Shown: in pieces, positions 580-59,795 of the stretch | How positions within the stretch are numbered: the first letter of the stretch is position 1 | Layout of the letters: every line of letters starts with the position of its first letter | From: Eledone cirrhosa | Lineage: Eukaryota | NCBI GenBank assembly: GCA_964016885.1 | Contig: OZ024743.1 | Span: 65,534,001 to 65,598,000 of the forward strand | Length of the DNA: 64,000 bases | Reading direction: 5' to 3' | The notes under the pieces: model-generated | What the model saw: the letters and a program-made list of their open reading frames with translations, nothing else | The model's database searches: none | What the model was told of the DNA's origin: nothing | Position numbers and translations under genes: made by a program

Positions 580-580
<1 letters not shown>

Positions 581-753
581 ACAAAGGAAGTGTGGTAAGA
601 TTCCAGGTCGACCATATCGCACCAAAGTACTCGATACTTAGGGTAGTAGAGTGGGTAATAGGAAAAGAGTCAGGGCCCCGACGGCTGAGCTCCGGTCGTT
701 TCCACAGTTTGTCGAAACGGCGGGAGCTCAGCCGTCGGGGTCCCGAATCTTTT

Positions 754-757
<4 letters not shown>
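580..757 (-). mobile_element. Fold-back PLE-terminus element, family C (half hammerhead), copy 1
   Basis: Diverged homolog of 32373-32565, 42882-43068 and 59603-59795; terminal hairpin plus conserved tail; (TA)n on both sides. Confidence 0.7.
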
Positions 758-3384: not shown

Positions 3385-3531
3385 ATATACGGTACTTAAT
3401 TTTTCCTACCCCGTAAGTATGAAAAGCAAAGTTATCCTCGGCGGGATTTGAGCTCAGAAAGTAAAGCTCCATAACTCTATGCCGCAAAACATATTCCCCG
3501 ACGTTCTACCGATTCCGCCAATCTAACGCCC
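3385..3531 (-). mobile_element. tRNA-derived SINE, family S1, diverged partial copy
   Basis: Reverse complement of the S1 head and core. Confidence 0.7.
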
Positions 3532-3562
3532 TTACACTTGTTAATAACGGCAGTAATAAGAC

Positions 3563-3782
3563 AGCGGTGGATTGACAGTATCGGTAGAGAGTCGGACACC
3601 ATGCTTTGAAGCATAGAGTTACCTCCCTTTATGATCTGAGTTCAAAACCCGCCGAGGTTAACTTTGCCTTTCATCCTTACGGGGTCGATAAAATAAAGTA
3701 CCAGTCACGCACTGGGATCAATTTAATCGACTTTCCTCTCCCCCAAAATTGCTGGCCTTGTGCCTATATAAGAAACAATTAT
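3563..3782 (+). mobile_element. tRNA-derived SINE, family S1 (Nin-like core)
   Basis: A-box-like head, B box GAGTTCAAA, core GCCTTTCATCCTTACGGGGTCGATAAAATAAAGTACCAG, tail GCTGGCCTTGTGCC; many copies in the window. Confidence 0.85.
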
Positions 3783-4085
3783 TTAGTGTTAGAATTGTTC
3801 TTATAAGAAAACAAGAGCATCTTAGGGAAGAGTCTCAGTATGTTGTGAAAAACTTATTTCCCACGCTATAGTGAAGGATTGTTTTCCTGTTATGAATGAA
3901 ATAAAACAATTTCCACCTTTCAGAATAAACACATACAAAAATCACCAAGACATACACACCTACACACAGAGACATAACAGCATCCACATTCACACACACA
4001 CTTATGTATGTATATATGTATGTGTGTATTTATGTATGTGTGCGTGTGTTTATGTATGTATGCATGCATATATGTATGTATGTAC

Positions 4086-7156: not shown

Positions 7157-7746
7157 TGGCCACTCACAGTAAAGTGATCAGTGAAAAAAAAACTTGGTAC
7201 ATCTACATATGTATACGTGTGTGTATTCATATACATACTAGTATTTCAGTATACATATATGGATGTACATCTTTGACTTAATTGTTTGAGCGTCAGTCAT
7301 ACAAAAGTGAGTTACAAACGAAACGAAATTTAATTTCGTTTCGTTATTTGTTTTTATCGTCTCCGTTGAACCGGTACTTACTCACACTCTATGCAAGTTG
7401 GTCTGCCCACTACTAATTTTCATAGAAAAAGCATATAGCGATATGTGCTTTTACGATTCTCTAGAGAGGCCGGAAGATAGGTAAATATTGCTGATGAGTT
7501 GTAACAACAACGAAACTAGTTCAATATTCCTTGTCTGGCTTTCTGGAGAATAGAGGAAAGGTGTTTCCTCAAAAACCAGTATGACTCTAAAAACCGGTTT
7601 GTCTGTGTGTTTACATACAGAATAGCTGGCCACTCACAGTAAAGTGATCAGTGAAAAAAAACTTGGTACATCTACATATGTATACGTGTGTGTATTCATA
7701 TACATACTAGTATTTCAGTATACATATATGGATGTACATCTTTGAC

Positions 7747-7752
<6 letters not shown>
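7157..7752 (+). mobile_element. Non-coding retrozyme-like module (470-bp period, ~126-bp terminal direct repeats)
   Basis: 7157-7283 matches 7627-7752 apart from poly-A length; internal intact HHR; TA-rich flanks. Confidence 0.7.
7484..7528 (+). ncRNA. Minimal type-I hammerhead ribozyme
   Basis: AATATTG-CTGATGA-GTTGT aaca ACAAC-GAAA-CTAG-TT-CAATATT: 7-bp helix I, 5-bp helix II, palindromic CTAG helix III, GUU site. Confidence 0.88.
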
Positions 7753-7815
<63 letters not shown>

Positions 7816-8054
7816 TAACAGATTAAAATTTAAGCAAAGAATCGCTGCTTTCACCCTTAAGGGGATCTTCTGCTGTTATTTTAATAAATATTTGCTCTAC
7901 GGTTCTTATATATTTGATATATATTTATCCTTATCGAGCCCTCTTTGGATTTTAGTCTTTAAATTTATTATTATTACTATATATATATATATATATATTT
8001 CGTTTCTGAATTTGTTTAGCAAGATTCTTTATCTGAAATCGTGTGTTGAAACCG

Positions 8055-8311
<257 letters not shown>

Positions 8312-9373: not shown

Positions 9374-10138
9374 TATATTATAAAATATCAGAATAGAATG
9401 CCGGATAAAATACCACATTGTTCCGACTCTTTACGTTCTGAGTTCAAATCTTGCCGAGGTCAACTTTGCCTTTTCAACATTGCTGGCCTTGGGTAATGTT
9501 AGAAAGAATTAATATATTAAATTGTTATGCCTCAACTTTCCCTGCACCATCTAGCTTAGTAGTTCCCAAACTTTTGTGTACCCTGCCACATCAGAACATC
9601 TCAGAAAGTGTTTTTGATGTGAAAATACCTCTCTTTGATATGACAACAGCGATGATCAACTGAAAAAGTAAACACATTGGCGTATAGGTGGTGCCAGATG
9701 TACAGGAGGATGTGAGACAGGAGTTTCCAACAGTAATGCATACCAAAGTAGCCTAGAGGTAAAATTAATTGGGTAAAACCTAAAGTTTGTCTCGATAAAA
9801 TCATTGATTTAGCCTTCAGTACATATATCAACGTATCGCTTATTTTCTTCAAATGAATTATATTTACCATAAATTGGTGTATTGCAAGATTTATTTGCTC
9901 TTGATAAGCTTTTCCTGATAATCAAATTCAATCCACACCATCAATTTTTTCATTTCTGAAACTAATACATATTACAAATATTTATTTTTTGAGTATCATA
10001 TGAAAAGCCCCATATGGCGAAACATCGATGTAACTGTCAATATTTAAATAATAAATGTATTCCTCTTCATCAACGCTTCCGGTTTTTAATTCACTTAATG
10101 TTTTGTTATTTTATATAACTAAAGGTAGCAAACAGTCC

Positions 10139-10176
<38 letters not shown>

Positions 10177-10179
<3 letters not shown>

Positions 10180-10394
10180 AAAAGTAAACAGAAATAACAA
10201 CACAATCGGTACATTATATGTTAACATTAGGTTAACGCTTGATATAGCAGGAAGAGGGTCTTAACGTTTCGAACGCTAGTCCTTCATTAGAAGAAAGAGT
10301 GAGAAATAACATAGATTCAGGGTACAGGCGGGTTGGAATTGGAAAAAATGTCATTAGATAAAAATAACAGGTCCATTCATATTGACATCTCTTG

Positions 10395-10397
<3 letters not shown>
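10177..10397 (-). mobile_element. Family B copy 2 (HHR scaffold 10259-10294)
   Basis: Reverse complement of 4592-4812; one end is duplicated in inverted orientation across the (TA)n at ~10477-10510. Confidence 0.7.
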
Positions 10398-10460
<63 letters not shown>

Positions 10461-10507
10461 ATATATATATATATATATTGCAAGAGATGTCAATATGAAT
10501 GGACCTG

Positions 10508-10561
<54 letters not shown>

Positions 10562-10754
10562 TAAATTAATAAAAACAATGAATAAAAACCAAAAAACAGT
10601 TCCTTATATTAAAAAATTCATGATTTTACGATCGTTTCTAGGATATATATGTGTGTGTTGGTATGTATATCATATAGATCTATGTAAACATTTTACAAAC
10701 TATCAGAGGGAATATATATATACACAATGCTTCAAGCAAACTTCAATACTCTCA

Positions 10755-11139
<385 letters not shown>

Positions 11140-11175
11140 GTTGAAAATTGCAAACTTGACTGTCACCACATATTA

Positions 11176-11214
11176 TGAACCTGAAGATTGCGAAAGCATG
11201 AAAGTACTTGTTCA
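11176..11214 (+). ncRNA. Minimal type-I hammerhead ribozyme
   Basis: TGAAC-CTGAAGA-T TGC gaaa GCA T-GAAA-GTAC-TT-GTTCA: 5-bp helix I, GNRA-capped helix II, palindromic GTAC. Confidence 0.8.
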
Positions 11215-11388
11215 ATTAACACTTAGAATTTAATATTCTATCATACTATTTCATTATAATACCATTATAGATTTTAAAGGATTGTAAATAAAACGAGTAA
11301 ATCAGACAAAGTTGGAATTCCTCTTATTAATATAATCTTCTATACACAATCATACACACCCGTGTATATTTACCTATCTATCTATCTA

Positions 11389-11450
<62 letters not shown>

Positions 11451-11479
11451 CACATACATGCACACATATATATATGTAC

Positions 11480-13130
11480 GTATGGATTCACCGAACATTT
11501 ATTATAATGCTCGGTGTGTTTGTAAACAAACATCCCGTATTAAGCCGTTGTGTCTAGCAACCATCGTTGCTCGTTTGTTCAACACTGACAAAGGAACGCT
11601 GTACTAGTTTCAAGCTTATTAGCTATCGTCAGCAACGTATACCTTCCTGCCAGATTGTTGAACGTATATACTTACCTTATGCATATTAACGGCTGAGTAG
11701 CCCAATTTGCATATCGAGTGGGTTAATCGGCCGGGTGCATATTACAAAGATTGAGAGTTAGGATAAATGGAAGAATTTAATAGACTTGACTATTGCAAAG
11801 TTTGGACCAAAATATTGAGTATTTAAAATTTTTGTCTTTTAACGACCATATAAGTTATGATAAAGAAGTAGAGAATTTCTTATCTGGATTCGAAAAAGAG
11901 TGCTTATGATTAGAAAATCTTAATTTAAAGCTCGATGAAGTTGCACCTATATAGTTGTAGGTGATGTTATTTGCTTTAACGGTACATTTATAAACTAAGT
12001 TCTTATCAAGGCAATTATTTTGCAAAGGGCAATTAGATCTATTTCTACAGTTACATTTCGATTTTCTGTTATTACTATAATTTAAACTGTACGCGTTATC
12101 ATTGCTAATACTTGCAGGTGTTCTATTGTAAGTGCTTAAATTAATGTTATTGTTATTCACAGTATCAATATTATTGCTAATGTTAATATTGTCATTATCA
12201 CTAATTCAGTATTGCTATGTTTAACTAGAGTAAATAATATATCATCCCTATATAAACCACCGGTAATCTCCGGCAATTTTCTATTTACCCTATTGAGGAT
12301 AAAAATTCCCGGAAGATCGGTAATTTGCGCAGAGTCAGACGATCCCATGGTAATGTCAAAATTTCTATTCCTATCAGAACGAGTCTAAAACTCATTATTA
12401 AAATTAATCAGGGTTCGTTTAGCCGTTAATATGATATTAATCTCCTCGCTAGTTAGATCTGTATGTTTATAAGCGTAAGACAAAGCCTTATTCAAGAGAT
12501 TAGGTGTTATAGATGAGTAGTAACTTGCTATGTCCATTTGAATGAATTTGTGATTTTTCTTATTTTCAATATTCCTAAACCAGTCTATTACTTCGCTAGT
12601 GTCCTTCCATAAGCTCAGCTTTGACTTCAATTACAATGTTGGCAAAATTCTATCAATAATATTTTTACTGATTACTCCAATGTCCGACTTAGAGGGAGCT
12701 ATCAGACTAACCGGCAAGTCCTCTTCGAAATTTCTTTTGTGATCCTTAAAATTTATCCGCGGCTGCCTTGGTATAAAAGGTTCGGTCTTTCTTTCGATTC
12801 CAAGTTTGGCTATTAATTCAAGCGCGTCATTATTGATGTCTAGTAGATCTTCAGCCTTTCTGTAATTCTTTCGCAGTTCTTTTAAAATTAAATCCTTATA
12901 TTCTGTTTTATCTATCCCATATAAGTTGTTGGTTTTGTCTGACTTCACCAATATTTTATTTACTTTTTTATATCTAAGATTTTTTCCTTCAGACTTCTAA
13001 GGGTTTTTTCTTAAATTTTATCTTCCTTAATATATTAAGAATTTCACTTTCAAAATCCTCCAGAAGTTTGTTGTATGGAGGATTTTTCCTAGATTTGAAG
13101 ATGTTTTCAAAATTATTGTTGTTGTTTTTC
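11480..13130 (-). mobile_element. Degenerate Penelope-like element (RT + GIY-YIG, stops and deletions)
   Basis: ORF pieces INFKDHK, MDIASYYSSI, MGSSDSAQITDL, GGLYRDD, CNCRNRSNCPL, VYKC..YIG; same type as 1711-3320. Confidence 0.88.
11596..11638 (-). ncRNA. Minimal type-I hammerhead ribozyme in PLE 3' region
   Basis: ACGTTG-CTGACGA-T AGCT aata AGCT T-GAAA-CTAG-TA-CAGCGT; same strand as, and downstream of, the PLE ORF. Confidence 0.85.
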
Positions 13131-13152
13131 CTTATATGTATATATATATATG

Positions 13153-13388
<236 letters not shown>

Positions 13389-13488
13389 AATGTATGTATA
13401 TATATTTCGTTTCTGAATTTTTTTAGCAAGATTCTTTATCTGAAAATGTGTGAAACCGATATTGTGTGAAACCGATATTGAAACCGAT

Positions 13489-13737
13489 ATTGTTATACTT
13501 TGGGAGGGTCATGTTGCCAATAAGAAACACACGCACCAGTTGCTTTCACTTCAATTTATTATAATAAATTTATAAATTCATGAATTTATAAATTTCCGGT
13601 TGGTTGGTTGGTTCCACAACCAGATGGTTGATTATATATTGTCAAAGTTCTTTCGCCACACATTCTGTGACCTCTTCAGTGACTGGGGATTCTTTTCTTT
13701 GTTTTTGTGCCTCTCCTTTGTTCTGTCCTACGCCATC
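13489..13737 (-). mobile_element. Family A pseudo-LTR fragment with intact-core HHR (13641-13684)
   Basis: GTCA-CTGAAGA-GGTCACAGAATGTGTGGC-GAAA-GAAC-TT-TGAC on the minus strand. Confidence 0.75.
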
Positions 13738-13800: not shown

Positions 13801-13866
13801 TATTTTATCTGATGAGGAGGTACTGAGGAAACAGCACAGTACCTCTGATATATATATAATAAAATA
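13801..13866 (+). ncRNA. Type-I hammerhead ribozyme with one core substitution (GAAA to GATA)
   Basis: TATTTTAT-CTGATGA-GGAGGTACTG..CAGTACCTCT-GATA-TATATATA-ATAAAATA: 8-bp helix I, 10-bp helix II. Confidence 0.75.
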
Positions 13867-18201: not shown

Positions 18202-18967
18202 ATGTTTCTTTATTAGCCACAGGGGCACAAAAGAAGGGGACAAATACAAAGGGGGAAGTTTACATACAATAAAAACGTGTAAAATATTATCACAAATGCA
18301 ATTTAAAAATTAATCGATTTTCCCCAATAGGGGGAGACATTTCATATGGGTAGCACATACCCCCGAAAAAATGTGCAACCCTCATCTCCAGGAGTACGAA
18401 GAGTGAGTACCCTTTCCTCTCTTCCTTTTTTTCCTCAACCTACAAGCTGATATAGAGAGAAGGCCCATTCACTCGGGCCATTCTCGCCACTTTCACCCAC
18501 CTTTCATAAAACTTGCTGGGGTACAGCACCTCTCTCTCCATCCTGATTCTTCTTCCAAAGTGATATTTGAAAAAAAAGAATCAGTTGTTGGCCGGAGAGA
18601 AAGGTGTCTGACCTCAGCCCTTTCAACCTTGTCCACCATAGAACCTCTCTCGCCATAGCTATCACACAAAGGAAACCGCCTCTCCTTTGTTTTTGAAGGA
18701 GGGTGGCGGATTGATCATGACAATGGACTTGATGGTCAACCGGATTGGTCCCACCCGCAACAATAGTCGTTCCACATACCCCCACAGGTCGGTAACGCCC
18801 GGGTAGTGTACGAATGCGTGCGCGACGGTTTCTTCGTCTCGCACGCATCTCGGACAGAACTTTTTCGAAGGTTCCCTGCCCGGGCGCCCATGTCTGTAGA
18901 ACTTCCCTCGAACTGGTAGAGCTCCTCGGTAGCACTGCCAGGCCAGGGACTTTTGGAAATTGTCCAT
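18202..18967 (-). mobile_element. Tx1-clade non-LTR retrotransposon, short 3' fragment
   Basis: MDNFQKSLAWQCYRGALPVR..CPRC..H matches the C-terminus of the adjacent long copy; (TCTA)/(TC) repeats on both sides. Confidence 0.88.
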
Positions 18968-19051: not shown

Positions 19052-22000
19052 ATGTTTCTTTTATTTGCCACCAGGGCATCAAAAGTGGGACAAGTACAAA
19101 GGGGGGAGTTTACACAAAAAGGCGTCCTCAATAAGGAGGAGGCAATAACAAAATATAAAAATAAAATAAAATATAACAAAAAATAAAATTTATAACAAAA
19201 TCCTCAATAGAGAGGAGGCGCCTTGGGGGGTCGCACACACCCCCGAAAAAAGTGTGCAACCCTTTTCCTCAGGAGCACAGAGAGGGGGTGCTCCCTCGTT
19301 CCTTCCTCCTTTCCACCTACAGGCTTATGTAAAGAGAAGGCCCATTCACACGGGCCATTCCCGCCACTTTCACCCACCTTTCATAAAAACGACTGGGGTG
19401 GAGCACCTCTCTCTCCATCCTGATCCTTCTTCCGAAATGATATCGGAAGAAACGGACCAGTTGTTGGCCAGAGAGAAAGGTGCCTGACCTCAGTCCTTTC
19501 AGACGCGTCCACCATACAACCTCTTTTGCCATGGCTATTACGCACAGAAACACCGCCTCTGCTTCATCTTTGAAGGGGGGAGGCGGCTTGATCATTACAA
19601 TAGACTCGGTGGTCAACCGGATCGGTCCCACCCTTGACAGCAGTTGTTCGACATAGCCCCACAGATCGGCTACGCCCGAGCAGTGTACCAATGCGTGTGC
19701 AACGGTTTCCTCGTCGCACACGCATCTGGGACAGATCTTTTTGGCGGGGTCCCTACCCGGGCGCCCGTGTCTGTAGAACCTTTCTCGAACGGGTAAAGCC
19801 CCTCGGTAGCACTGCCAGGCCAGGGACTTCTGGAAGTTGTCCATAGGTCCCGGGCTGAATGTCCTACCGAACAGACTGGCCAGTTCGTCCTCCTCCATGT
19901 CTAGGGCTTCTCCGAGGGCGTCGTCGCACCTGCTGCGTACCAGCCCTCTATAGAATGTTGCGGTGGAGTCTCCACTGATAACCGGATCCGCCTGCCAGAG
20001 GGCGGTGAGCGCCTGGGCACACTCAGTGTGCCAGGCGCCCAGTTTTCTCGGTCTTTGCTTGACCCAGGATTGCAGCTCGGTGAGTGAGACGAGTCTGGGA
20101 AAGGCTCGTCTCACAAACGAGGCCCACACCGGTTGACCGGTGAGGAATACGTAGAGGTGCCGTAGCCTTAATGCGTGTTTACGCATCATTAGCCACGGCA
20201 TCCCCAGCCCTCCTTTCGAAGGGTGTTGACAGCAGATGGATCTCCTCACCATAGGAGCCCGCCTCTTCCAAAGGAATTGGAAGAGTGCGCGCTCCATCTT
20301 GGTGAGGGTTTCCCTTGGGCAGGGCACTACGGTCAGGCGGTAGTAGATGACGGACGCTATGTAGGTGTTCGCCAACTCCGCCCGACCTTTCAGGGATAGT
20401 TTGCAACTGGCCCACTTCTGGGTCAGTGCAAACACCCTGTTCGTAACCTCCGCCCAGTTTTTCTCCACCTGGAGGTCCGGTCCGAACCAGACCCCGAGCA
20501 ACTTCACCGGGCCCTCCGTCCAGCGTCCGACGACGCCATCGGAGGGCATCGGTCTGCCCCTCCACGTGCCGAGTTGCAAACCGATCGACTTGTCCCGGTT
20601 CAGCTTAGCCCCTGTGAACCTTTCGTACTCCTCCAGTAAGGTGCCGACCGCCTCGATTCCGGAGGCCGTCGACACCATTACTGTCACGTCATCGGCGTAG
20701 GCCGACACCGCTTTCCGCAATCCCGGTTCCAAAGGGATGCCCTGCAACAACTCCAACTTCCGCAGTAGTGGCTCGAGAGTCAACACATACAGAAGGGAGG
20801 AGAGAGGGCACCCTTGTCGGATGGACCGCGCGATTTTGAACGGCTCCGAGAGGTAGCCGTTCACCTTGACCCTAGAGCAGATGCGGCTGCTGTGCATAGC
20901 AGTGATCCAGCCCCTGAAAACGGGTCCGAAGCCTGCCGCCGCTAGCACCGCATCCAAGTAACCATGGTCGACCCTATCGAACGCCTTAGATTGATCCAAG
21001 TTGATCAGAGCCCCACCAAAGCCGGGTTCGTTCCCAACCCTCTCTATGATGTATCGCATGAGGTGGAGGTTGTCATGGATGGACCTGGACGGGATAGCGC
21101 ATGTCTGCGCATCTCCCACCAGGTTGCCCACGACAAGCGCCAACCTCTTTGCTAGCACCTTGGCCAAAATCTGTAACTCTGTATTTAGCAGAGTTATGGG
21201 CCTGAAGTTACTTATTTCGTCCCCCTTGTTCTCGTCCTTCCTCACTAGCGTGACTACGCCCTTGGTCACAGTACAGGGAATTCTCCCGTTCTGTTGCCAG
21301 TTGCAGTAGACCGCCTCGAGGAGATCGGGGAACAAGTCCGGCATAGCTAGATATAATTCGTAAGGAAGACCATCGAGACTCGGGGATTTGCGTTTGCCGC
21401 ATTGGCTCAGCACGTCCTCTATCTCAGCGGCCGAAATCGGCTCCTCGCAGGACTTCGCCTCCCTGTCCGAGAGGCGCGGCAGGCCGTCGAGGTATGGACC
21501 GAAGTCCACGTTCCCAACCGGCTCCCCGCCCCTCCCGAACAGTCGGGCAAAGTGCCTTTGAAAGGCCTCACACATCTGCTTAGGCTCAAGAATCGCCCGT
21601 CCATCCAGGTCTCGCAAAGACCGGATGGTGGATTTAGTTCCACTGTTGGCCTCTGTCACGCGGGCCCAGCTAACAGCTTTGGTCCCCTCGTTCCCTAGAG
21701 CACGTATTTTACTTCGGACAACGCAGCCTTCGTGCTTCGCGTCGAAAAACTGGCTCAAAGCCGTTCTCGACGCTAGGACTATGGCCACGTCGCCGCTTCT
21801 AATAGCCTCTTCTACTCTATCTATTAGCTCCCTTTCCTTCCTATTCCTATCCGCAGCTAGAACCTTTCTAAATTCTATCGAGACTACTCTAATCTCTCTC
21901 TTTAGAGATACCCACCACCTGCTGTTGACGATCGCTCCAGTCAACCGTTCCTTAACTAACGTACTAATCCGATCCCTGTAGGCTCTACTTGCCGGCAAGG

Positions 22001-22590
22001 ACAAGTTGAGCTTCCAGTAACCGGGGCCCTGTCTATGCGTTCTATCAAGGTTGACCATGCAGGTCACCAACTTGTGGTCTGAATAGCCAACCATGAGCAT
22101 TTCTGGACAACTTAAAAAGTCCCTGTCGTTATTTCTAACTAAAAATCTATCTAGGTACGACCTAGATGATCCGCTGCGATTTGACCAAGACCAGGTTGGC
22201 ACCGTCGGAAAATCTAGTCGAAATCTATCGGTCAGGTCAAATCGGCCGAGTAACCCCTTGAGGCTGTTGCACCCCTCTCTATCGGGACATGCCCCTGCAT
22301 AGTCCCAACGTGCATCCAGGATACCAGTCCAATCCCCCACTAAAAGCAGGGAACGGGACGTCCCTAGAAAAGACTCCAGACGCTGGAAAAAGTCGGGCCG
22401 CTCAGTCCCAAAAGAGGCATATGCGGCTACCAGCCTAAAGGCTCTACCTTCACCACTGCCAAGGTCCAGCACCACCAGTCGACCCCCTGGGTCCAAGTGA
22501 ACTATCTGTGTTGCAAGGCCCATATGTTTTTGCAGCAGAACGACAACCCCACCCCCACCTCCGGGCTGACAGAGAGATGCGTGCATAGGA
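19052..22590 (-). mobile_element. Tx1-clade (L1-group) non-LTR retrotransposon, 5'-truncated ORF2 (19317-22586, 1089 aa open)
   Basis: APE C-terminal half (LVGDW, SYLDRFLV, YSDH), GPGYWKLN, RT (FRPITLLN, DQSKAFDRV, QGCPLS, YADD), zf-RVT CPRC..H..C; 3' end AATAAAAGAAACAT joined to TC-rich repeat. Confidence 0.95.
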
Positions 22591-23338
22591 GGACGCGGTT
22601 GATTGGTTTGGCGCGGGGGGGGGGGGGGGGGACGTCCTCCGTGAAATTTATTTTCAGTGTTTTGTACAAGTGCATTGGGACTTTTATCATTTTTAAATGA
22701 GGTAGTCCCACAGCAGTTTTAAAGTTAGTTTTGGACCGAAGGGTTTACTGAAATTGTTTTCCGTAATTCTTTGTTGTCTGTGTTCATGTATGTATATTGT
22801 AAGGTCTTTTTTTGTGTAGCAGATAGTGTTGTGTGACAGGGAGGGGTGATAGATAGATAGATAGATAGAGAGAGATAGAGATAGAGAGGGAAAGAGAGAG
22901 AGAGAGAGTGAGAGAGAGAGAAGGGGAGAGAGAGAGGGAGAGAGAGAGAGGGAGAGAGAGAGAGAGATAAGGGGTGGTGGCACAGAAAGAAAAAGAGAGA
23001 AAAGGACAGGAGATAGAGAAAGACCGAGGGAGAGAAACAAAGAGAGAGAGAGAGAGAGAGAGAGGGCGGAGAGAAAGAAAGAGAGAGAGAGAGAGAGGGA
23101 GAAAAGGAGAGACAGAAAGAAATATCAATATTTAAGTAAAAATCGATAAAATGGTTAGAAAAACAAATCAATTCTCAAAAAATAGTGCAAAGAAAACAAA
23201 TGTAGAAGAAAAGAAGTGAAAAATAATCAAAAAACAAAACCAAATATAGAAAAAAAGTAATTAAAAGAAAATATACACTAAAGAAAAAGCAAAATTACAG
23301 ATGTCGTCTCTTTTATGACAACTAAAGCGATTGACATA

Positions 23339-32372: not shown

Positions 32373-32376
<4 letters not shown>

Positions 32377-32563
32377 AACGAGTAGGACCCCGACGGCTGA
32401 GCTCAAGCCGTTTCGACGGCTAATTCAGTCCACAATTAGCCGTCGAAACGGCTTGAGCTCAGCCGTCGGGCTCCTACTCGTTCCTATTACCTACTCTACT
32501 ACCCTAAGTATTGAGTACTTTGGTGCGTTATGGTCCACCTGGTTCCTTACCACATTTCCTTCG

Positions 32564-32565
<2 letters not shown>
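32373..32565 (+). mobile_element. Family C fold-back element, copy 2
   Basis: ~53-bp hairpin arms around an 8-nt loop; right arm reads helix II-GAAA-CGGCTTGAGCTCAGCCG-TC-GGG; embedded in (TA)n. Confidence 0.75.
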
Positions 32566-32646
<81 letters not shown>

Positions 32647-34819: not shown

Positions 34820-34858
34820 AGAGTATTGAAGTTTGCTTGAAGCATTGTGGAATAATAA

Positions 34859-35508
34859 GTAAATATCTTTAAGTCGTTTGGAAGCCTCGACAATGCAAAT
34901 GGGTAAATCTCCGGGTAACAAGATCCGGTGGTGGAGAGAGAGATGTAAGTGGGTGTACGTTGAGATGCGTGGTGTGTATAAGATGTGTAAATGTGTAGAA
35001 GAAAGAAGGGAAGAGTATAAAGGATAAAATAAATAATAACAACACAAGAGAGAGTTACCTTGGGAGAGATTTAATAGTCCCTATATATTTCGGATTCACA
35101 TCCATCACTGGGGTTTTTTTCCGGGGTAAAGGTTGCTGTCGGACAGGTGCGAAACGCGTCCTCCGCTGTTTGTTGTTTTGAATATTCAAAACAACAAACA
35201 GCGGAGGACGCGTTTCGCACCTGTCCGACAGCAACCTTTACCCCGGAAAAAAACCCCAGTGATGGATGTGAATCCGAAATATATAGGGACTATTAAATCT
35301 CTCCCAAGGTAACTCTCTCTTGTGTTGTTATTATTTATTTTATCCTTTATACTCTTCCCTTCTTTCTTCTACACATTTACACATCTTATACACACCACGT
35401 ATCTCAACGTACACCCACTTACATCTCTCTCTCCACCACCGGATCTTGTTACCCGGAGATTTACCCATTTGCATTGTCGAGGCTTTCAAACGACTTAAAG
35501 ATATTTAC
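34859..35508. repeat. 650-bp near-perfect spacerless palindrome
   Basis: 325-bp arms centred at 35183/35184; two mismatches noticed. Confidence 0.93.
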
Positions 35509-35847
35509 ATATATATATATATTGAAAGGATAACAAGGACGATTGGTTACTCCTTCATTACATTTATTGGTAGGTGACGCGCGTTTCGCCACTGATCAGC
35601 TCAAGGTTCGATCTATATCGATCTTACCCGACTCTATAATCGGCAGCTTGACGGACCCCTTAAAATGCTAGTAGAAAATGAATACATGCTATATGATAAA
35701 GTCAAAAGTTCATATATATATATATATATATATATTGGTAAAAGAAAAAGAAAATGCTGACAAATTGTTCCCAGTGAAAAATAGTTTAATTAGGAATAAG
35801 TAAAAATTAGTAATAAGTATTGGTTAGTATTCAGTTTTGGCTTTAAG

Positions 35848-35979: not shown

Positions 35980-36586
35980 CTTTTGACTTTACCTGGAGTT
36001 GCGACCGATAGATAGTATTAGCAATTGTAAAGACCAATGGAAACACTGTTTCCTCGGTCCGATTTGACGAAAGTCGATCGTTAGGAATATATATATAATT
36101 GCAAGTCTGAAGAACTATTAGATAAAATATATACAGTATTTCCTCTCCTAGTCCGTATAAATCAATCACATAAAAAATCGTATAAACGAGGTTATAAGTT
36201 TAAAATGTAATTATGAAGAAATAATAGACAAATGATACAGAATATCTTCCGCGATGTACAGCCATATGACATTTATCTAATTATTTCTTTTAGTCTGTAG
36301 AAATTGACTAGATAAATAATTAACTACACGGAGTTAGGTACAAAATAGAAGTTTGAAGAAAAAATGCGCATAAACATTACCAGTGTGTGTATTCATTGGA
36401 AGATGGCGTATGCATTTGTTGTTGTAATGTCAACGGCCATAACAACAACAAATGGATACGCCACATCATGGATTGCAAAAGGGAACCGTTGAAATAATTA
36501 TAATGAATAAACGATTTATGTAACATCAGCATCTTTCTTTCTTAATGTTATTCTTATATATATATATCCCGTAGTCGGGATTTTAC

Positions 36587-36695
<109 letters not shown>

Positions 36696-36877
36696 TGTAA
36701 AATCCCGACTACGGGACCAAGTGGTTTCGGCTTGGCGCGCCGCGGTCGGGTTCTTTCATATCTTTATACCCACTCTACATCTCCCCATGCAATGAGTACT
36801 CCCATGTCCCCCACCGTCTCACTGGGGCAATATTTTTAGTGTAGCATCGATAGATAGCTTCGAGTTCTGCAGCAAAC

Positions 36878-38020
36878 TTAACACTATATGTTGGTAATAA
36901 CTGAGATAATTTTAAACACTATATGTTGATAATAGCTGAGATCATTTTAAACACTATATGTTGGTAATAGCTGAGATCATTTTAAACACTATATGTTGAT
37001 AATAGCTAAGATCATTTTAAACACTATATGTTGGTAATAGCTGAGATCATTTTAAACACTATATGTTGATAATAGCTGAGATCATTTTAAACACTATATG
37101 TTGGTAATAGCTGAGATCATTTTAAACACTATATGTTGATAATAGCTGAGATCATTTTAAACACTATATGTTGGTAATAGCTGAGATCATTTTAAACACT
37201 ATATGTTGATAATAGCTGAGATCATTTTAAACACTATATGTTGATAATAGCTGAGATCATTTTAAACACTATATGTTGATAATAGCTGAGATCATTTTAA
37301 ACACTATATGTTGATAATAGCTGAGATCATTTTAAACACTATATGTTGGTAATAGCTGAGATCATTTTAAACACTATATGTTGATAATAGCTGAGATCAT
37401 TTTAAACACTATATGTTGATAATAGCTGGGATTATTTTAAACACTATATGTTGATAATAGCTGAGATGATTTTAAACATTATATGTTGATAATAGCTGAG
37501 ATCATTTTAAACACTATATGTTGATAATAGCTGAGATCATTTTAAACACTATATGTTGATAGTAGCTGAGATCATTTTAAACACTATATGTTGATAATAG
37601 CTGGGATTATTTTAAACAGTATATGTTGATAATAGCTGAGATCATTTTAAACACTATATGTTGGTAATAGCAGAGATCATTTTAAACACTATATGTTGAT
37701 AATAGCTGAGATCATTTTAAACACTATATGTTGGTAATAGCAGAGATCATTTTAAACACTATATGGTGATAATAGCTGGGATTATTTTAAACAGTATATG
37801 TTGATAATAGCTGAGATCATTTTAAACACTATATGTTGATAATACCTGGGATCATTTTAAACAGTATATGTTGATAATAGCTGAGATCATTTTAAACACT
37901 ATATGTTGATAATACCTGGGATCATTTTAAACAGTATATGTTGATAATAGCTGAGATCATTTTAAACACTATATGGTGATAATAGCTGGGATTATTTTAA
38001 ACAGTATATGTTGATAATAG
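36878..38020. repeat. 35-bp minisatellite (AAACACTATATGTTGATAATAGCTGAGATCATTTT)n
   Basis: About 32-33 homogeneous head-to-tail units with no spacers. Confidence 0.95.
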
Positions 38021-39822: not shown

Positions 39823-42363
39823 TATTGTTATATTTGGGGAGGGTCATATTTGCGTAATATTGCCAGAATTAATAACAGAACACACTCACTGTTTGGTTGG
39901 TTTTCGCTTCTCGCTGTCTTTTATATATATATATCTGCGATCTAACTTACTCGGTCCTCAATGTTGCCATTGACTGACCGGCGGTCAAAAATAAAATAAT
40001 ACAGATACAATATAGACAAACACATATATATATAGTTTACATAAATCTTTCGTTGCACATCTGCAACATCGTCAGTGGTGTTATATTCATTGTTCCTCCT
40101 GTTGTGTTGTATGTCTACGCCATTTTTTTTTGTTCAGTCCGTCTATATATTTATTTATTTGTTTGCTTGTTTGTTTATCTTATTTTATTTTGTCTTCTTT
40201 GCGCATGCGTTTGCGTGTGTGATGTGTGACTAGTGTGTATAGTGTTGTGTCTGCTGGGTGACTAGTGTGTGTTTATGTGCTTGTGTATGTATTTATTTAT
40301 CTTATTTTATTTAATTTAATTTACTTATTTATTTATACTTCTCTTAGGTCAGTGTTGTTTGTTTGGGTGTTGTTGTTGTTCCACTCATTCTTTCTGTTTA
40401 GCTTTGGTCTTCTAATTTCTATTTCACTGGCCTCTCTGATTTGCCTATCTGCTGGGTCATTCCTATGTTTAGATATTATTCTAATTTCTATGTTGTCTAT
40501 GTTACCGTCATGATGTTGTCTAGCATGTTCGTATAGTACTGACCCGTTTTTTCGTCCTTTTAGTTCCCCCCAGTGTTGGTCTATCCTTTCACCTATGCTA
40601 CGAGCTGTCTCACCTATGTATGTTGTTGTCGTGTTTCTACAAGTACCCTCTGTACATCTTATGCTATAGACTACGTTTCTAGTTTTACAGTTTATCCGGG
40701 GGTTCACCTTACATATGATACATTTCCTATTGGTACAGTGGGTTTTCTTAAAAGGGTAGGTTTTGCTGATCAGGGATTTTATGGTGGTTCCTGGCTTTTC
40801 TACCACCTTTATTTTTAAGTGGGTCTTTCTCAGGGCCTTTCTACACTGGTTAGCTAATTTCCCTCCAGGGGTGGCGTCCACAAACATGACACTCTGATAT
40901 CTCTGGTTGTCGTACCATGATGTGGCCTTCCCTATCTTATGTCTAGCCCTATCTAAGCTATTCCATGATTTGCTCCTGTATAGTGGGCAAATTCCTTTCA
41001 TGTCCAGTTCTATGAGGGTCTTATACTTTTCCATGGCTCCTTCGTATACTCTGACTCTGTCTCTTTGGTTGTAGCCAGAGAACTGCATGCGGTTGATGAA
41101 GTGTTGGATGTGTCCTTCCATTTCTGTTGGGTCGCACATGCTGGACACATTCTTCATCACTCGTACCAAATCTGCGATCAGAATATTAAACTTAGCACTA
41201 CTGGACATTGCTGAGTTTTTGAGTATCAGGTATTTGGAGGCCATGGGTTTAGCATAGTGTGAGTGGAGAATTTGGGCTCTCTCGTCTATAGTGTTAATCC
41301 AGAGTTCTGTGTCTAATACAGGTAGTCTATTGTTAGGGTGTTTGGAAGGGAAGTCTATAGTTACAGTTATACTCTGGTGTATGGAATTAGCTATCTGCTG
41401 GATGCTTTCCATCGTGCTACGTTCTAAATCAAACTTGTTAGTGCTCTCTAGTGGGGGTGTTCTTATAACTATATTGATATCGTCTACATAACGAGAGTAC
41501 ATGATGAGGTCTATGGAGCTTTCATTAAGGAGATCTTTAAGTCTCCTTTCCCACCATACCATGAAAAGGTTGGCAACATCGCCAGCTATGCTGACGCCGA
41601 TGGCTGCTCCCTCATTTTGGGTGTAGATTTTCTCATTGAACTTAAATATGTGGCCCTTTAGGGTAGTTTTGATACTAGCCCCTATTGCATGTGCGACCAT
41701 TTTTCTTACCTGATCAGTGTTTTGGGGGGTCCGTATAGCTTTGGTCCACCCAATCCACCTTCCTATGGGAGTCTTTTTAGCCATTGAGGTTATGGTGGGG
41801 GGTCTACCTCTTATAGGTCTACTAGGGCAGAAACATCTAAGGTCATGGCTGTCTAGGTAGTCAGTGTCGTAGGTAAGTCTAAGTAGGAGGCCCAGTTCGT
41901 CTGTGTCGACGTCGCAGAACTCCACCTCACTCTCAATGATCATCTCCACACATCTTTTCACAGCAAAATCAATGTTAATGGATGGGTACAGTGACACCAC
42001 ATCCATGCTGCCTATTATGCAGTTGGATAGGCTCCTGTTTTTGTTGCACTCACTGATTCTGCTGAGGAGGTCCTCTGTACTTTCACATACATCTGGGGAC
42101 ATCTTGATTATGGGGCGTATAACCATTGAGAGGAAGTAGGAGATCCTGTAGTTGCTAGCTATATTAGCTCCGCATACAGGTCTTGTTGGTGGTCCTGTTG
42201 TCGGGTCGTCGACTGTCTTGTGGTCTTTGCGGAGCCCATACAAGGGTGGTATGCCATTGTTAGACGCCTGGAAGTTGTTGGCAGTGCGTCTGCTTGGCTT
42301 TAGGATGTCAGTCCACATCATCATGTGAGCGTTGAGGATTTTTTCTCTCCCATCGTGTGTTAG
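39823..42363 (-). mobile_element. Penelope-like element, 5'-truncated, open RT + Cys linker + GIY-YIG ORF (40333-42324)
   Basis: LYGLRKDHK, SMDVVSLYPSI, QNEGAAIG, SRYVDD, HCTNRKCIICK, VVYSIRC..YIGET..R..H..E; 3' region with HHR ends in (TA)n. Naiad-like assignment is tentative. Confidence 0.93.
40039..40078 (-). ncRNA. Minimal type-I hammerhead ribozyme in PLE 3' region
   Basis: CA-CTGACGA-T-GTTGCA gatg TGCAAC-GAAA-GATT-TA-TG; intact core, 6-bp helix II, weak helix I. Confidence 0.7.
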
Positions 42364-42822: not shown

Positions 42823-43174
<352 letters not shown>

Positions 43175-43440
43175 AGTATTGAAGTTTCCGTTGAAAATTG
43201 ACAAAGTCATAGGAATGAAGAGTGCTCTATGTAAGTTACAGACGAACGAATGAGGACGTTTCTTGTATTCGTCTTATTCGGGAAACTTCTGGTAATGAGG
43301 TCATTATTTGTATTGTTTATTATACATTATATATATGTATATATATATATATGTATATATTTATATATACTGTATATGCATATATAATATAGAAAGGCTT
43401 CTACAGGACTAGAACCGTTTCATTCGGGAGAAATCATAAG

Positions 43441-43491
43441 GGCTACCTGATGAATCCTCCCGAATGAAACAGTTCTAGTCCTGTAGAAGCC
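43441..43491 (+). ncRNA. Type-I hammerhead ribozyme with an inverted copy immediately upstream
   Basis: GGCTAC-CTGATGA-ATCCTCCCGAAT-GAAA-CAG ttctagtc CTG-TA-GAAGCC; inverted partial copy at ~43386-43439. Confidence 0.72.
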
Positions 43492-43632
43492 TTTCTATAT
43501 TAAATATTTATACTCTGCTTTGTATTGAGTACCTTACTTTGGTTACCCCCGATTGAACCCGGGATAAACTTATCTTTCACATCAGATAAAATAAGGTAAC
43601 ATGATATGAGGCCTAAAAACACTTGTCAACAA

Positions 43633-43698
<66 letters not shown>

Positions 43699-51592: not shown

Positions 51593-52936
51593 TCATATGT
51601 GACGCTTCATATGCAGTGAGAGATGGTCGCTTCTAGAAAATGCCCGTTCGCAAAGATGGCACTGGAAAGGTCGATCTCCTGTATGTTTTCTGTAATGGCG
51701 TGTCAATTCATCTGAACGTGCAAACTTCCAACCGCATCCCTTCCAATTGCAATGGTAAGGTTTCTCACCCGTGTGTGTGCGCAGATGAGCTTTCAGATGA
51801 GAGCTCTTCGTGTAGGTTTTACTGCATCCAGTGTGAGTACATGTATGGTTGGTCTGACGTTTGCGACCCCATGAACGCCTGCCTCGTTTTTTTGGAACGT
51901 TAACCCCGCCATCGACAATTGCCTGTTGCTGCAATAAGTCCACAAGTTGCGGTGATGCTGGAGGTGTAATCATCTGGTGAGGTAATTGTAACATCGAATT
52001 CTGAGGATTTCCCATTTTAGGGAGAATGTGTGGAGGCAAAAGTATCTGTTGCTGGTGAGGATGGTGTGGATGCATCATTCCTAGTTGGTTGCATTGCATC
52101 TGTTTACGGTCGTCGTGCATTTCTGGGGATGCTGGTGGAGACATGTGACCGGGGATGACATAGTGTATGGGATTTGGTTGCTGTGCGGTGCCTGCAGGCA
52201 AAGCAGTCATTGTTGCGTTATATGTGGCACAAGATGAAGACATGGTGCCGTATTCCTGCTTGGGAATAATATTCAACGGAGAGGTCTTAAATTCTGATTT
52301 AACAGTCAGCATTTCAACTGTATTATTAGGATGATGACTATGATGGTGATTTTCAGTGTCGAATTTAATGTCAGGGATATCTAGAAAAGCTGAGTGGAAG
52401 TCGGGGAGTGGTTCTAAAGTTTCTTGTTTGATCTTCATTATTGGTTCCTCTTGATACAAGCTTTGGTTTTCGGCAGTGTTGTTTAGGATAAAGTCTAAAT
52501 CTAGAAGATGCTCGTAGTTATCCAGCATCTGTTCTTGACCACGGTGGTTACCCAATAAATAGGAAAGTTGACTGCTGTATGACGGCTGCTTCATCATGTT
52601 AGACATAATAGCTAACGTAGACAGGTTACTGCCGTTGGCAGTGAGTGTGATCATAGGATTCGAAGAGGTGTTCACATTATTATTGAGACTATCTGTCGTG
52701 CTGTTATTAATGTTGCTGTTAACACCATTGTTATTCATGGCAAGGATATGTAGGTTACTAATGGTTGGCATATTTGTCGTCGTGTTCAAACTGTTGCTAG
52801 TTTGTTGTGGCTGTTGGGTATGTGTTGGCCGGCTTGGACCAAGTAATAACTGATCCGACTGTGACATAATATGCAGCATGCTCGTTTCATACGGCGTGTT
52901 ATCCTGGTACAGTAGATTCTCCACTTCTTGCCAGGT
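51593..52936 (-). CDS. KLF2/4: Kruppel-like factor, KLF1/2/4 group, main coding exon (three C2H2 zinc fingers, stop codon)
   Basis: [11 protein letters not shown] basic motif, [30 protein letters not shown] fingers and LLDLDFIL motif as in KLF4; acceptor ttttaattacAG at 52938-52937 opens in frame with TWQEVENLL. Confidence 0.95.
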
Positions 52937-53113
52937 CTGTAATTAAAAGAAACAAAATATAAATAATAATCATGATATTGACATTTATGTAACTATATGT
53001 TAACTTATATATAAGGGGATTAAAATGAAATTTATTGCAATCACATTATACCATAAATCTGCTCGAATATGTTTTATACAGGCTTACACACACACACACA
53101 CACACACACACAC

Positions 53114-53173
<60 letters not shown>

Positions 53174-53325
53174 ATATATACGTAATATGTATATACGTAT
53201 ATATATATGAATATACATATATATATACGTATATATATGTATATACGTTAACGAAAAAGAACCAGAGTTAAATATGATACTCAATACATTAGTAGAGAAA
53301 GTGTATATTTATTTCATATAAAAAT

Positions 53326-53430
53326 GACGTCTACAGGACTAGAACTGTTTCATTTGTTTGAAATCATCAGGAAAGTATTTTACTGGTGATGATTTTGAAG
53401 GAACGAAACAGTTCTAGTCATGTAGAAGTC
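53326..53430. ncRNA. Inverted pair of decayed hammerheads in the predicted KLF intron
   Basis: Same family as 43441-43491; minus copy (53326-53376) keeps CTGATGA and GAAA-CAG..CTG-TA but helices I and II are weak. Confidence 0.55.
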
Positions 53431-53721
53431 ATTTCTATGCGATATATATATATATATATATATATGCATGTGTGTGTATGTGTGTGCATGAGTGTATGTG
53501 CATGTGTGTGTGTATGTGTGTGAATGTGTGTGAATGTGTGTGTATGTATGTGTGTGAGTGTGCATGAGTGTGTGTATGTGTATGTGTGAGTGTGTGTATG
53601 TGCGTGTGTGTGCGTGTGTGAATGTGCGTGTTTGTGTGCATGACTGTGTGTGTATGTGTATGTGTGAGTGTGTGAATGTGGTGCACGTGCCTGTGCAATT
53701 ATGAGGTAGCAGAATACTAAC

Positions 53722-57384: not shown

Positions 57385-57914
<530 letters not shown>

Positions 57915-57961
57915 CGAGTACTCTGGTAAGTAATGGTCTAACTGGTTTTTAACGTCTCCAT

Positions 57962-58015
<54 letters not shown>

Positions 58016-59459: not shown

Positions 59460-59602
59460 TTGAATTAGTATGGTATAGACAAGTACATATGTTGTTTAGG
59501 TGTATGATATTGTCAATACTCTGATATGCCCAGTTCCTTGTTGGGTTGTTAATTCACTGGGGAACTGGAGTCAAATATATATATATATATATATATATCT
59601 TT

Positions 59603-59791
59603 AACGAAGGAAATGTGGTAAGGAACCAGATGGACCATAACGCACCAAAGTACTCAATACTTAGGGTAGTAGAGTGGGTAATAGGAACGAGTAGGACCCC
59701 GACGGCTGAGCTCAACCCGTTTCGACGGCTAATTTAGTCCAGAATTAGCCGTCGAAACGGCTTGAGCTCAGTCGTCGGAGTCCTACTCGTT

Positions 59792-59795
<4 letters not shown>
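59603..59795 (-). mobile_element. Family C fold-back element, copy 4
   Basis: As copies 2 and 3 in reverse orientation; in (TA)n. Confidence 0.75.

Follow-up and report, generated by a model that had tools for sequence, protein, structure and literature searches.

Previous studies described PLE insertions as direct copies with an inverted 5′-truncated partner and a one-sided tail, often placed in (TA)n (PMC8557442; PMC3846280). Self-priming has already been published as a source of PLE palindromes (PMC3846280), and the way in which PLEs make their insertions, be they inverted or tandem, is considered an unsettled matter in another account (PMC8557442). The hammerheads carried by PLEs are minimal type I ribozymes with a palindromic helix III (PMC4209133). 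In vitro, the Anolis Poseidon element (PAc) uses two internal RT start sites that bound the tail and nicks and extends both target strands; it is predicted to act as a dimer, and ribozyme cleavage is unnecessary (PMC11167929). Here, a 64-kb stretch of DNA (the window) was analyzed for a family of short hairpin-plus-tail insertions, family C, which is a real, abundant, core-less variant of the known PLE insertion type. As a class, the structure is ordinary for PLEs.

Family C shares with the EN+ PLEs (Penelope/Poseidon, Neptune, Naiad) the inverted partner, the one-armed tail, 5′-truncated solo copies, the (TA)n setting and a palindrome at the junction (PMC8557442; PMC3846280), and differs from what is described there in its size (~190 nt), the lack of an ORF, a junction concentrated at one stem, the occurrence of both loop orientations and a tail of 80 nt instead of the 30–40 nt usually cited. 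Two fixed start sites bounding the tail, an AT-rich target and a template left uncleaved at the ribozyme site are features in common with PAc, which is an in vitro mechanism, whereas family C is known from genomic products alone; the origin of the inverted partner is not dealt with in the part of the PAc account cited here (PMC11167929). Animal non-LTR retrozymes are likewise short, non-coding, PLE-related and hammerhead-derived repeats, but they are tandem direct arrays with complete ribozymes (10.64898/2026.07.22.740005); family C was ruled out as a retrozyme since it consists of dispersed, inverted single units that lack the core. Among the papers searched, which lay outside subscription journals and repeat libraries, there was no description of family C or of a loop-orientation marker. 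No passage on hairpins, palindromes or hammerheads occurs in an octopus repeat-annotation paper (PMC13282606); the motifs are absent from one of its supplements, and its repeat library may contain family C.

Architecture and abundance of family C

The initial annotation had proposed four copies in (TA)n, each made of a conserved tail and a long hairpin, and this description was confirmed in all four, with ends shifting by at most 1 nt (Table 1). Each unit of ~180–195 bases consists of a 50–55-bp hairpin and an 80-nt tail, in the hairpin-first order free (inverted) arm, loop, tail arm and tail. A (TA)n tract abuts eight of the eight copy ends, in the case of the tail end of copy 4 via a 3-nt filler, and the free arm stops at the same base in three copies and 2 nt short of it in copy 3. 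Copies 2–4 are 94–96% identical to one another and 77–79% identical to copy 1. The DNA fold of copy 2 reaches –73.9 kcal/mol (z = –17.3), and none of 200 shuffles folded as well. On three architectural features family C appears to behave like a PLE insertion, the link to an ORF being putative: an inverted 5′-truncated partner lies head to head with the direct copy (4/4), the tail is present on one arm only with two fixed 3′ ends, and the target is AT-rich or microsatellite DNA.

Table 1. Positions of the family C, D and A features within the window
Feature	Position	Strand	Description
Family C copy 1	580..757	-	divergent subfamily; 11 nt (703-713) separate two GAAAC arms; arms differ at ~6/50 positions
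Family C copy 2	32373..32566	+	free arm, loop, tail arm and tail, in (TA)n
Copy 2 free arm	32373..32425	-	tail-less inverted copy; its end is fixed site 1 (..TTCCTA, then TA repeat)
Copy 2 loop	32426..32433	+	AGTCCA core, native polarity on tail arm
Copy 2 stem, 3′ strand	32434..32444	+	hammerhead helix II position; stem present in non-folded relatives too
Copy 2 putative 3′ half of type I hammerhead	32445..32467	+	GAAA, 6-bp helix III closed by a palindromic loop, then GTC; CUGANGA absent
Copy 2 tail	32487..32566	+	80 nt, fixed site 1 to fixed site 2; contains GTATTGAGTAC, common to family D
Family C copy 3	42882..43069	+	free arm 2 nt shorter; 6-nt loop, orientation ambiguous
Family C copy 4	59602..59795	-	loop 59735-59742 flipped relative to tail: native polarity on free arm
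Tail-only relative	57912..57965	+	5′-truncated, in (TA)n; nhmmer E 1e-4
Family D copy 1 (D1)	43380..43634	+	hairpin-plus-tail; CUGAUGA kept (43447); turn ~3 nt upstream of core
Family D copy 2 (D2)	53270..53438	-	core in both arms; 11-nt loop upstream of core; tail boundary approximate
Family A head-to-head pair	7999..8127		tail-bearing arm (35 nt body plus tail) and tail-less arm (32 nt); internal control

Four of sixteen sequence sets, namely two RAD read sets, the X1 contigs (all under one species label) and the X4 contigs of a second organism (organism B), were matched to the element at 80% likeness. Family C is abundant, with four copies in 64 kb and ~26,000 matching reads in each RAD run (0.2% of the reads, a biased measure); 21,470 contigs matched in X1 and 3 in X4. 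The free-arm/TA junction is covered at a depth of ~5,000 in each of the two RAD runs and the tail/TA junction at ~10,000–12,000, so both ends of the element, which lie 80 nt apart, are fixed across the family. Within the stem, the RAD reads end at two AATT sites, presumably those of a MluCI-like enzyme, and the sequence further upstream is thus hidden in most copies. In X1, the summed contig depth of the AGTCCA loop is ~0.3 of that of the tail, while the subfamily of copy 1 accounts for ~2,000 loose-end reads per RAD run. An assembly artefact was ruled out because the arms differ by 1–6 substitutions and independent reads cross the free-arm/TA junction. Exact motif scans gave no match in metagenome contigs or prokaryote genomes, and a core-plus-tail pattern at 19 viral loci looks like chance, as these are AT-rich coding DNA without TA tracts.

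Besides the tail-only relative, a distant relative of the family C tail arm lies at 36720–36830 (nhmmer E 5e-4). It is devoid of GAAA, has the palindrome GGCGCGCC in place of the GAGCTC of family C, and directly precedes a 35-nt tandem array (36880–38020, 32.6 copies).

Hammerhead features and the age of the stem

The tail arm of every copy contains GAAA and a GTC triplet, together with a helix III of 3–6 bp whose loop is palindromic. This part of the tail-arm layout, as originally proposed, was thus recovered throughout, whereas the 11-bp stem that belongs to it is restricted to three copies, copy 1 having 11 nt between TTTC and GAAA with a stem of 3–4 bp. The G10.1–C11.1 closing pair together with GAAA is found on the tail arm of three copies, the pair being partly automatic, as the 5′ strand is an inverted copy. 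Exact CTGANGA is absent from both strands of all four copies, in agreement with the initial annotation, and helix I is lacking as well, with no 5′ strand beside a core. Family C is therefore not a type I hammerhead, having failed on both core and helix I, and it would not be expected to self-cleave because the core is absent.

A descriptor scan of the 64 kb returned three complete minimal hammerheads (at 362, 7491 and 13679), none of them in family C, over a background with a mean of 0.07 and a maximum of 2 in 30 shuffles. Rfam searches of copy 2 and D1 at E ≤ 10 yielded no hammerhead and only below-threshold matches to miRNA-type hairpins, and the window-wide search gave, among the best 150 of 331 rows, one hammerhead-like match (7473–7544) that is unrelated to family C. 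This last locus, which fits the descriptor and scores 37.7 bits with Rfam HH9 (gathering threshold, 52), is a complete minimal type I hammerhead flanked by two 126-nt direct repeats (7157–7282 and 7627–7751). At 13809, a CTGATGA..GAAA motif is followed by a short inverted self-copy and then by a TA tract, possibly a further fold-back.

Family C is probably a hammerhead remnant. GAAA, the G–C closing pair of helix II, the palindromic loop 3, the UH triplet and a site upstream of the tail are all shared with the PLE hammerheads, while the missing CUGANGA and the missing 5′ strand of helix I set it apart and imply that there is no working ribozyme; helix III has 6 bp as compared with the usual 1–2 bp (PMC4209133). 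Of the ribozyme interpretation first put forward, what stands is that the 3′ half resembles a remnant of a PLE-type hammerhead, with family D, which has the same geometry and a tail motif in common with family C, keeping CUGAUGA.

In the four copies, what is called helix II simply coincides with the centre of the fold-back, and hence they cannot by themselves show that folding took place at a pre-existing helix. Non-folded relatives bear on this point, as they have a self-complementary stem at the position of helix II, and the stem is thus probably older than the fold-back, as the initial annotation had supposed. One non-folded form is represented by 124 X1 contigs and, in each RAD run, ~1,300 reads; these diverge from the stem after 32422, with a median of 80 loose letters in the reads, where by eye GGCT can still pair with AGCC. 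The other consists of two X4 contigs (depths 2.9 and 4.7, from one sample, 30 upstream letters listed) with 125–127 nt upstream that do not match the element and include CGGCTATTT, which is complementary to the 3′ strand of the stem across a ~33-nt loop ending in AGTCCA; one of the two contigs runs on into the tail. In one non-folded subfamily, CTAATACT (consensus agreement 0.73–0.78) was considered by eye as a core-plus-bulge register and was rejected as too weak, with 5/8 letters agreeing and no partner for helix I. Among the loose-end rows listed (21, with 669 others), none has CTGANGA before position 32415. A non-folded parent of the copy 2/4 type was likewise absent from the loose ends listed, and the X1 rows, listed down to 11 contigs, include none at 32415.

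Families D and A and the surrounding repeats

Family D has the intact CUGAUGA and a helix III of 4 bp, while its helix I is partial. GTATTGAGTAC follows the predicted cut by 36–44 nt in family D and by 40–42 nt in family C; the similarity between the two families is modest (shuffle p 0.003–0.017), and a profile search with family C at E ≤ 10 did not recover family D. In D2, divergence between the arms is higher in the helix II segment (~7/20 positions) than downstream of it (4/34), a difference that might, in this single example, reflect two RNA templates. Cores of the CUGANGA type occur in both families A and D, with a full descriptor match in A.

The junction of the family A pair lies ~150 nt downstream of the hammerhead core of that family, where the parent has no strong stem (–2.8 and –3.4 kcal/mol), and both of the family's fixed ends were seen (at 551 without a tail, and at 13382–13490 as a tail). 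It follows from this pair that the hairpin-plus-tail geometry needs no helix II. When breakpoints were mapped on three other hairpin-plus-tail insertions, the turn was away from helix II in three out of three (D1, D2 and the family A pair), which does not support the mechanism initially proposed for this helix.

Two PLE-type RT ORFs are present (1743–2957 and 40333–42363); one is supported by RVT_1 (E 1e-4) and the other by 94 matches, one of which is labelled as a GIY-YIG endonuclease. Within the window, neither ORF has the tail motif beside it, and the search for a PLE ORF with a family C tail gave none. A near-perfect palindrome at 34855–35512 has 329-bp arms, no spacer and a tail-like extension on the left; its GAAACGCGTC motif faces the centre, and it represents another PLE-like family of the opposite (tail-to-tail-like) polarity. 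At 10367–10508 and 36565–36719, short inverted arms are paired around a (TA)n or (TC)n(TA)n(GA)n tract, which they face; the window as a whole is rich in (TA)n. An L1/Tx1-like non-LTR ORF of 1,133 aa (19317–22718; RVT_1, zf-RVT) is apparently intact and has a partial tandem copy at 18353–18965. A SINE-like interspersed family of ~190 nt occupies 3391–3790 and about 12 other places, with the copy at 3391–3702 being a head-to-head pair. The coding exon of a Krueppel-like factor (luna/KLF2-like; 51593–52942) has a 449-aa open frame with C2H2 zinc fingers, its closest relatives being those of Octopus bimaculoides (80% identity) and Argonauta (73%), which identifies the window as animal DNA from an octopod host.

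Loop orientation and the origin of the hairpin

An asymmetric loop between identical arms is an internal marker of which strand gave the centre. Between copies 2 and 4, the loops agree at 6/8 positions if one of them is reversed and at 3/8 in the same sense, with ~0.007 expected at random for at least 6/8 matches, and are thus one loop in opposite orientations to the tail. The earlier statement that the loops differ in all four copies is literally correct and misleading in this respect. Most loop-crossing reads carry the consensus T-AGTCCA-G. We take AGTCCA as the native polarity from the upstream arrangement in two of the three organism B contigs, in which it stands 5′ of the 3′ strand of the stem; this polarity would then lie on the tail arm in copy 2 and on the free arm in copy 4. 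As the arms are interchangeable, the reads are unable to phase the loop relative to the tail, and the flip is based on one clear pair of copies. It is a new and testable mechanistic clue, resting on few copies, and suggests that the two halves were copied separately and then joined, not produced by one strand folding back.

A PLE origin of family C is highly probable. Given such an origin, the joining of two cDNAs is reasonably likely to be the main route, and the complete reading, in which family C represents head-to-head pairs of 5′-truncated PLE pseudo-LTR ends whose two cDNAs were joined at the stem of a dead hammerhead, is one that we favour slightly. A PLE RT–GIY-YIG protein acting in trans would nick both strands of a (TA)n tract, and one cDNA would start from site 2 at the tail end and another from site 1, 80 nt inside. 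Both cDNAs would tend to halt within the stem-loop that lies 5′ of GAAA, or immediately beyond it, and their 3′ ends, complementary via the two strands of the stem, would anneal or be end-joined. Fill-in would then yield the hairpin with a loop supplied by either cDNA, and hence in either orientation. The template would be uncleaved RNA, as both arms cross the GTC site, and may by now be a hairpin copy and not the ribozyme-bearing parent. LINE-1 twin priming also joins two target-primed cDNAs at short homology, as is proposed for family C; there, two non-overlapping parts of one RNA are used, whereas the cDNAs of family C would start at two element-specific sites and share one template segment. 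Target-site duplications are unreadable in (TA)n.

We regard the joining of two cDNAs as the simplest reading because it covers both fixed ends, the loop flip and a set of lopsided joints. The latter are joined forms (10 of the 12 rows listed, of 91) in which the free arm and 1–6 nt of the loop are fused to 32480–32527, so that the stem and GAAA are missing on the tail side. They are rare (summed depth 26–141, compared with a loop depth of ~1.3 million) and may stem from deletions or mis-joining, since joints that have short sides or a likeness below 95 are often due to other repeats. Against two cDNAs, a flipped loop would likewise result if the arms recombined once the element had inserted, and deletions on one side would give joints of the free arm with a truncated tail as well. 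Such flips are part of another explanation, according to which a ready-made hairpin-plus-tail master is copied whole by a PLE protein and its arms recombine later. The wide recurrence of a few fixed inner structures (the AGTCCA loop and the common copy-1 subfamily) is consistent with this, and the lack of a copy 2/4-type parent among the loose ends listed makes it a serious rival. We consider it unlikely, as families A and D form the same geometry with junctions that vary from copy to copy; some master loci, if few, might also be hidden, with 21 loose-end rows listed beside 669 others and RAD reads cut at AATT in the stem. Master copying with later flips is compatible with the joining of two cDNAs and may operate alongside it. 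The alternative raised in the initial annotation, a hairpin form that is mobile in its own right, may likewise hold.

The initial annotation had instead proposed that a cDNA halts after helix II, snaps back and self-primes its second strand; in the model considered here, this cDNA would be primed at the tail and a nick at site 1 would resolve the product. Published proposals invoke self-priming to explain PLE palindromes (PMC3846280) and resolution by a nuclease to explain the tail (PMC8557442). The stem is already present in the non-folded relatives, and the turn lies 5–15 nt upstream of GAAA in all four copies of family C. From this proposal the probable pre-existence of the stem is retained, but a single cDNA snapping back would give only the orientation of copy 2, unless later recombination flips the loop, and could not directly yield a free arm joined to a tail side without the stem. 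The stem of copy 1 (3–4 bp), the turns of D1, D2 and the family A pair away from helix II and the failure to find a CUGANGA parent among the loose ends listed also speak against snap-back, which we consider distinctly unlikely. There is a slim chance that the 5′ end of the RNA, and not the stem, determines where the turn falls, with transcription starting just upstream of the ribozyme and run-off cDNAs being end-joined: the turns of D1 and D2, 3–7 nt upstream of the intact CUGAUGA, would fit, whereas those of family C fall downstream of the expected position of the core, and the subfamily with ~1,300 reads per RAD run extends a median of 80 unmatched nt upstream of the stem. A DNA element resembling a MITE or Helitron, in which the GAAA..GTC motif arose by chance, would account for the fixed ends, the long inverted repeat, the TA target and the lack of both coding sequence and an Rfam hammerhead match. 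It is hardly credible, given that the inverted repeats lie next to each other on one side and not at the termini, nothing pairs with the tail end, a 5′-truncated tail-only copy exists, and families A and D share the geometry while having CUGANGA cores, with the full descriptor match in A; a MITE or TIR DNA transposon proper was ruled out as the repeats are adjacent and not at both termini.

The abundance of family C is relevant to the annotation of octopod repeats, and counts of loop orientation over thousands of octopod copies would separate snap-back from the joining of two cDNAs. More tentatively, and on balance doubtfully, helix II may have outlived its ribozyme as a clasp: from both nicked target strands a PLE RT dimer would prime two cDNAs, these would anneal via the two strands of helix II, and in each round the core-less hairpin would regenerate itself with the loop either way. 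If true, family C would be a self-propagating, ribozyme-derived fold-back parasite and, at the same time, a record in the genome of the way in which inverted repeats of PLEs arise.
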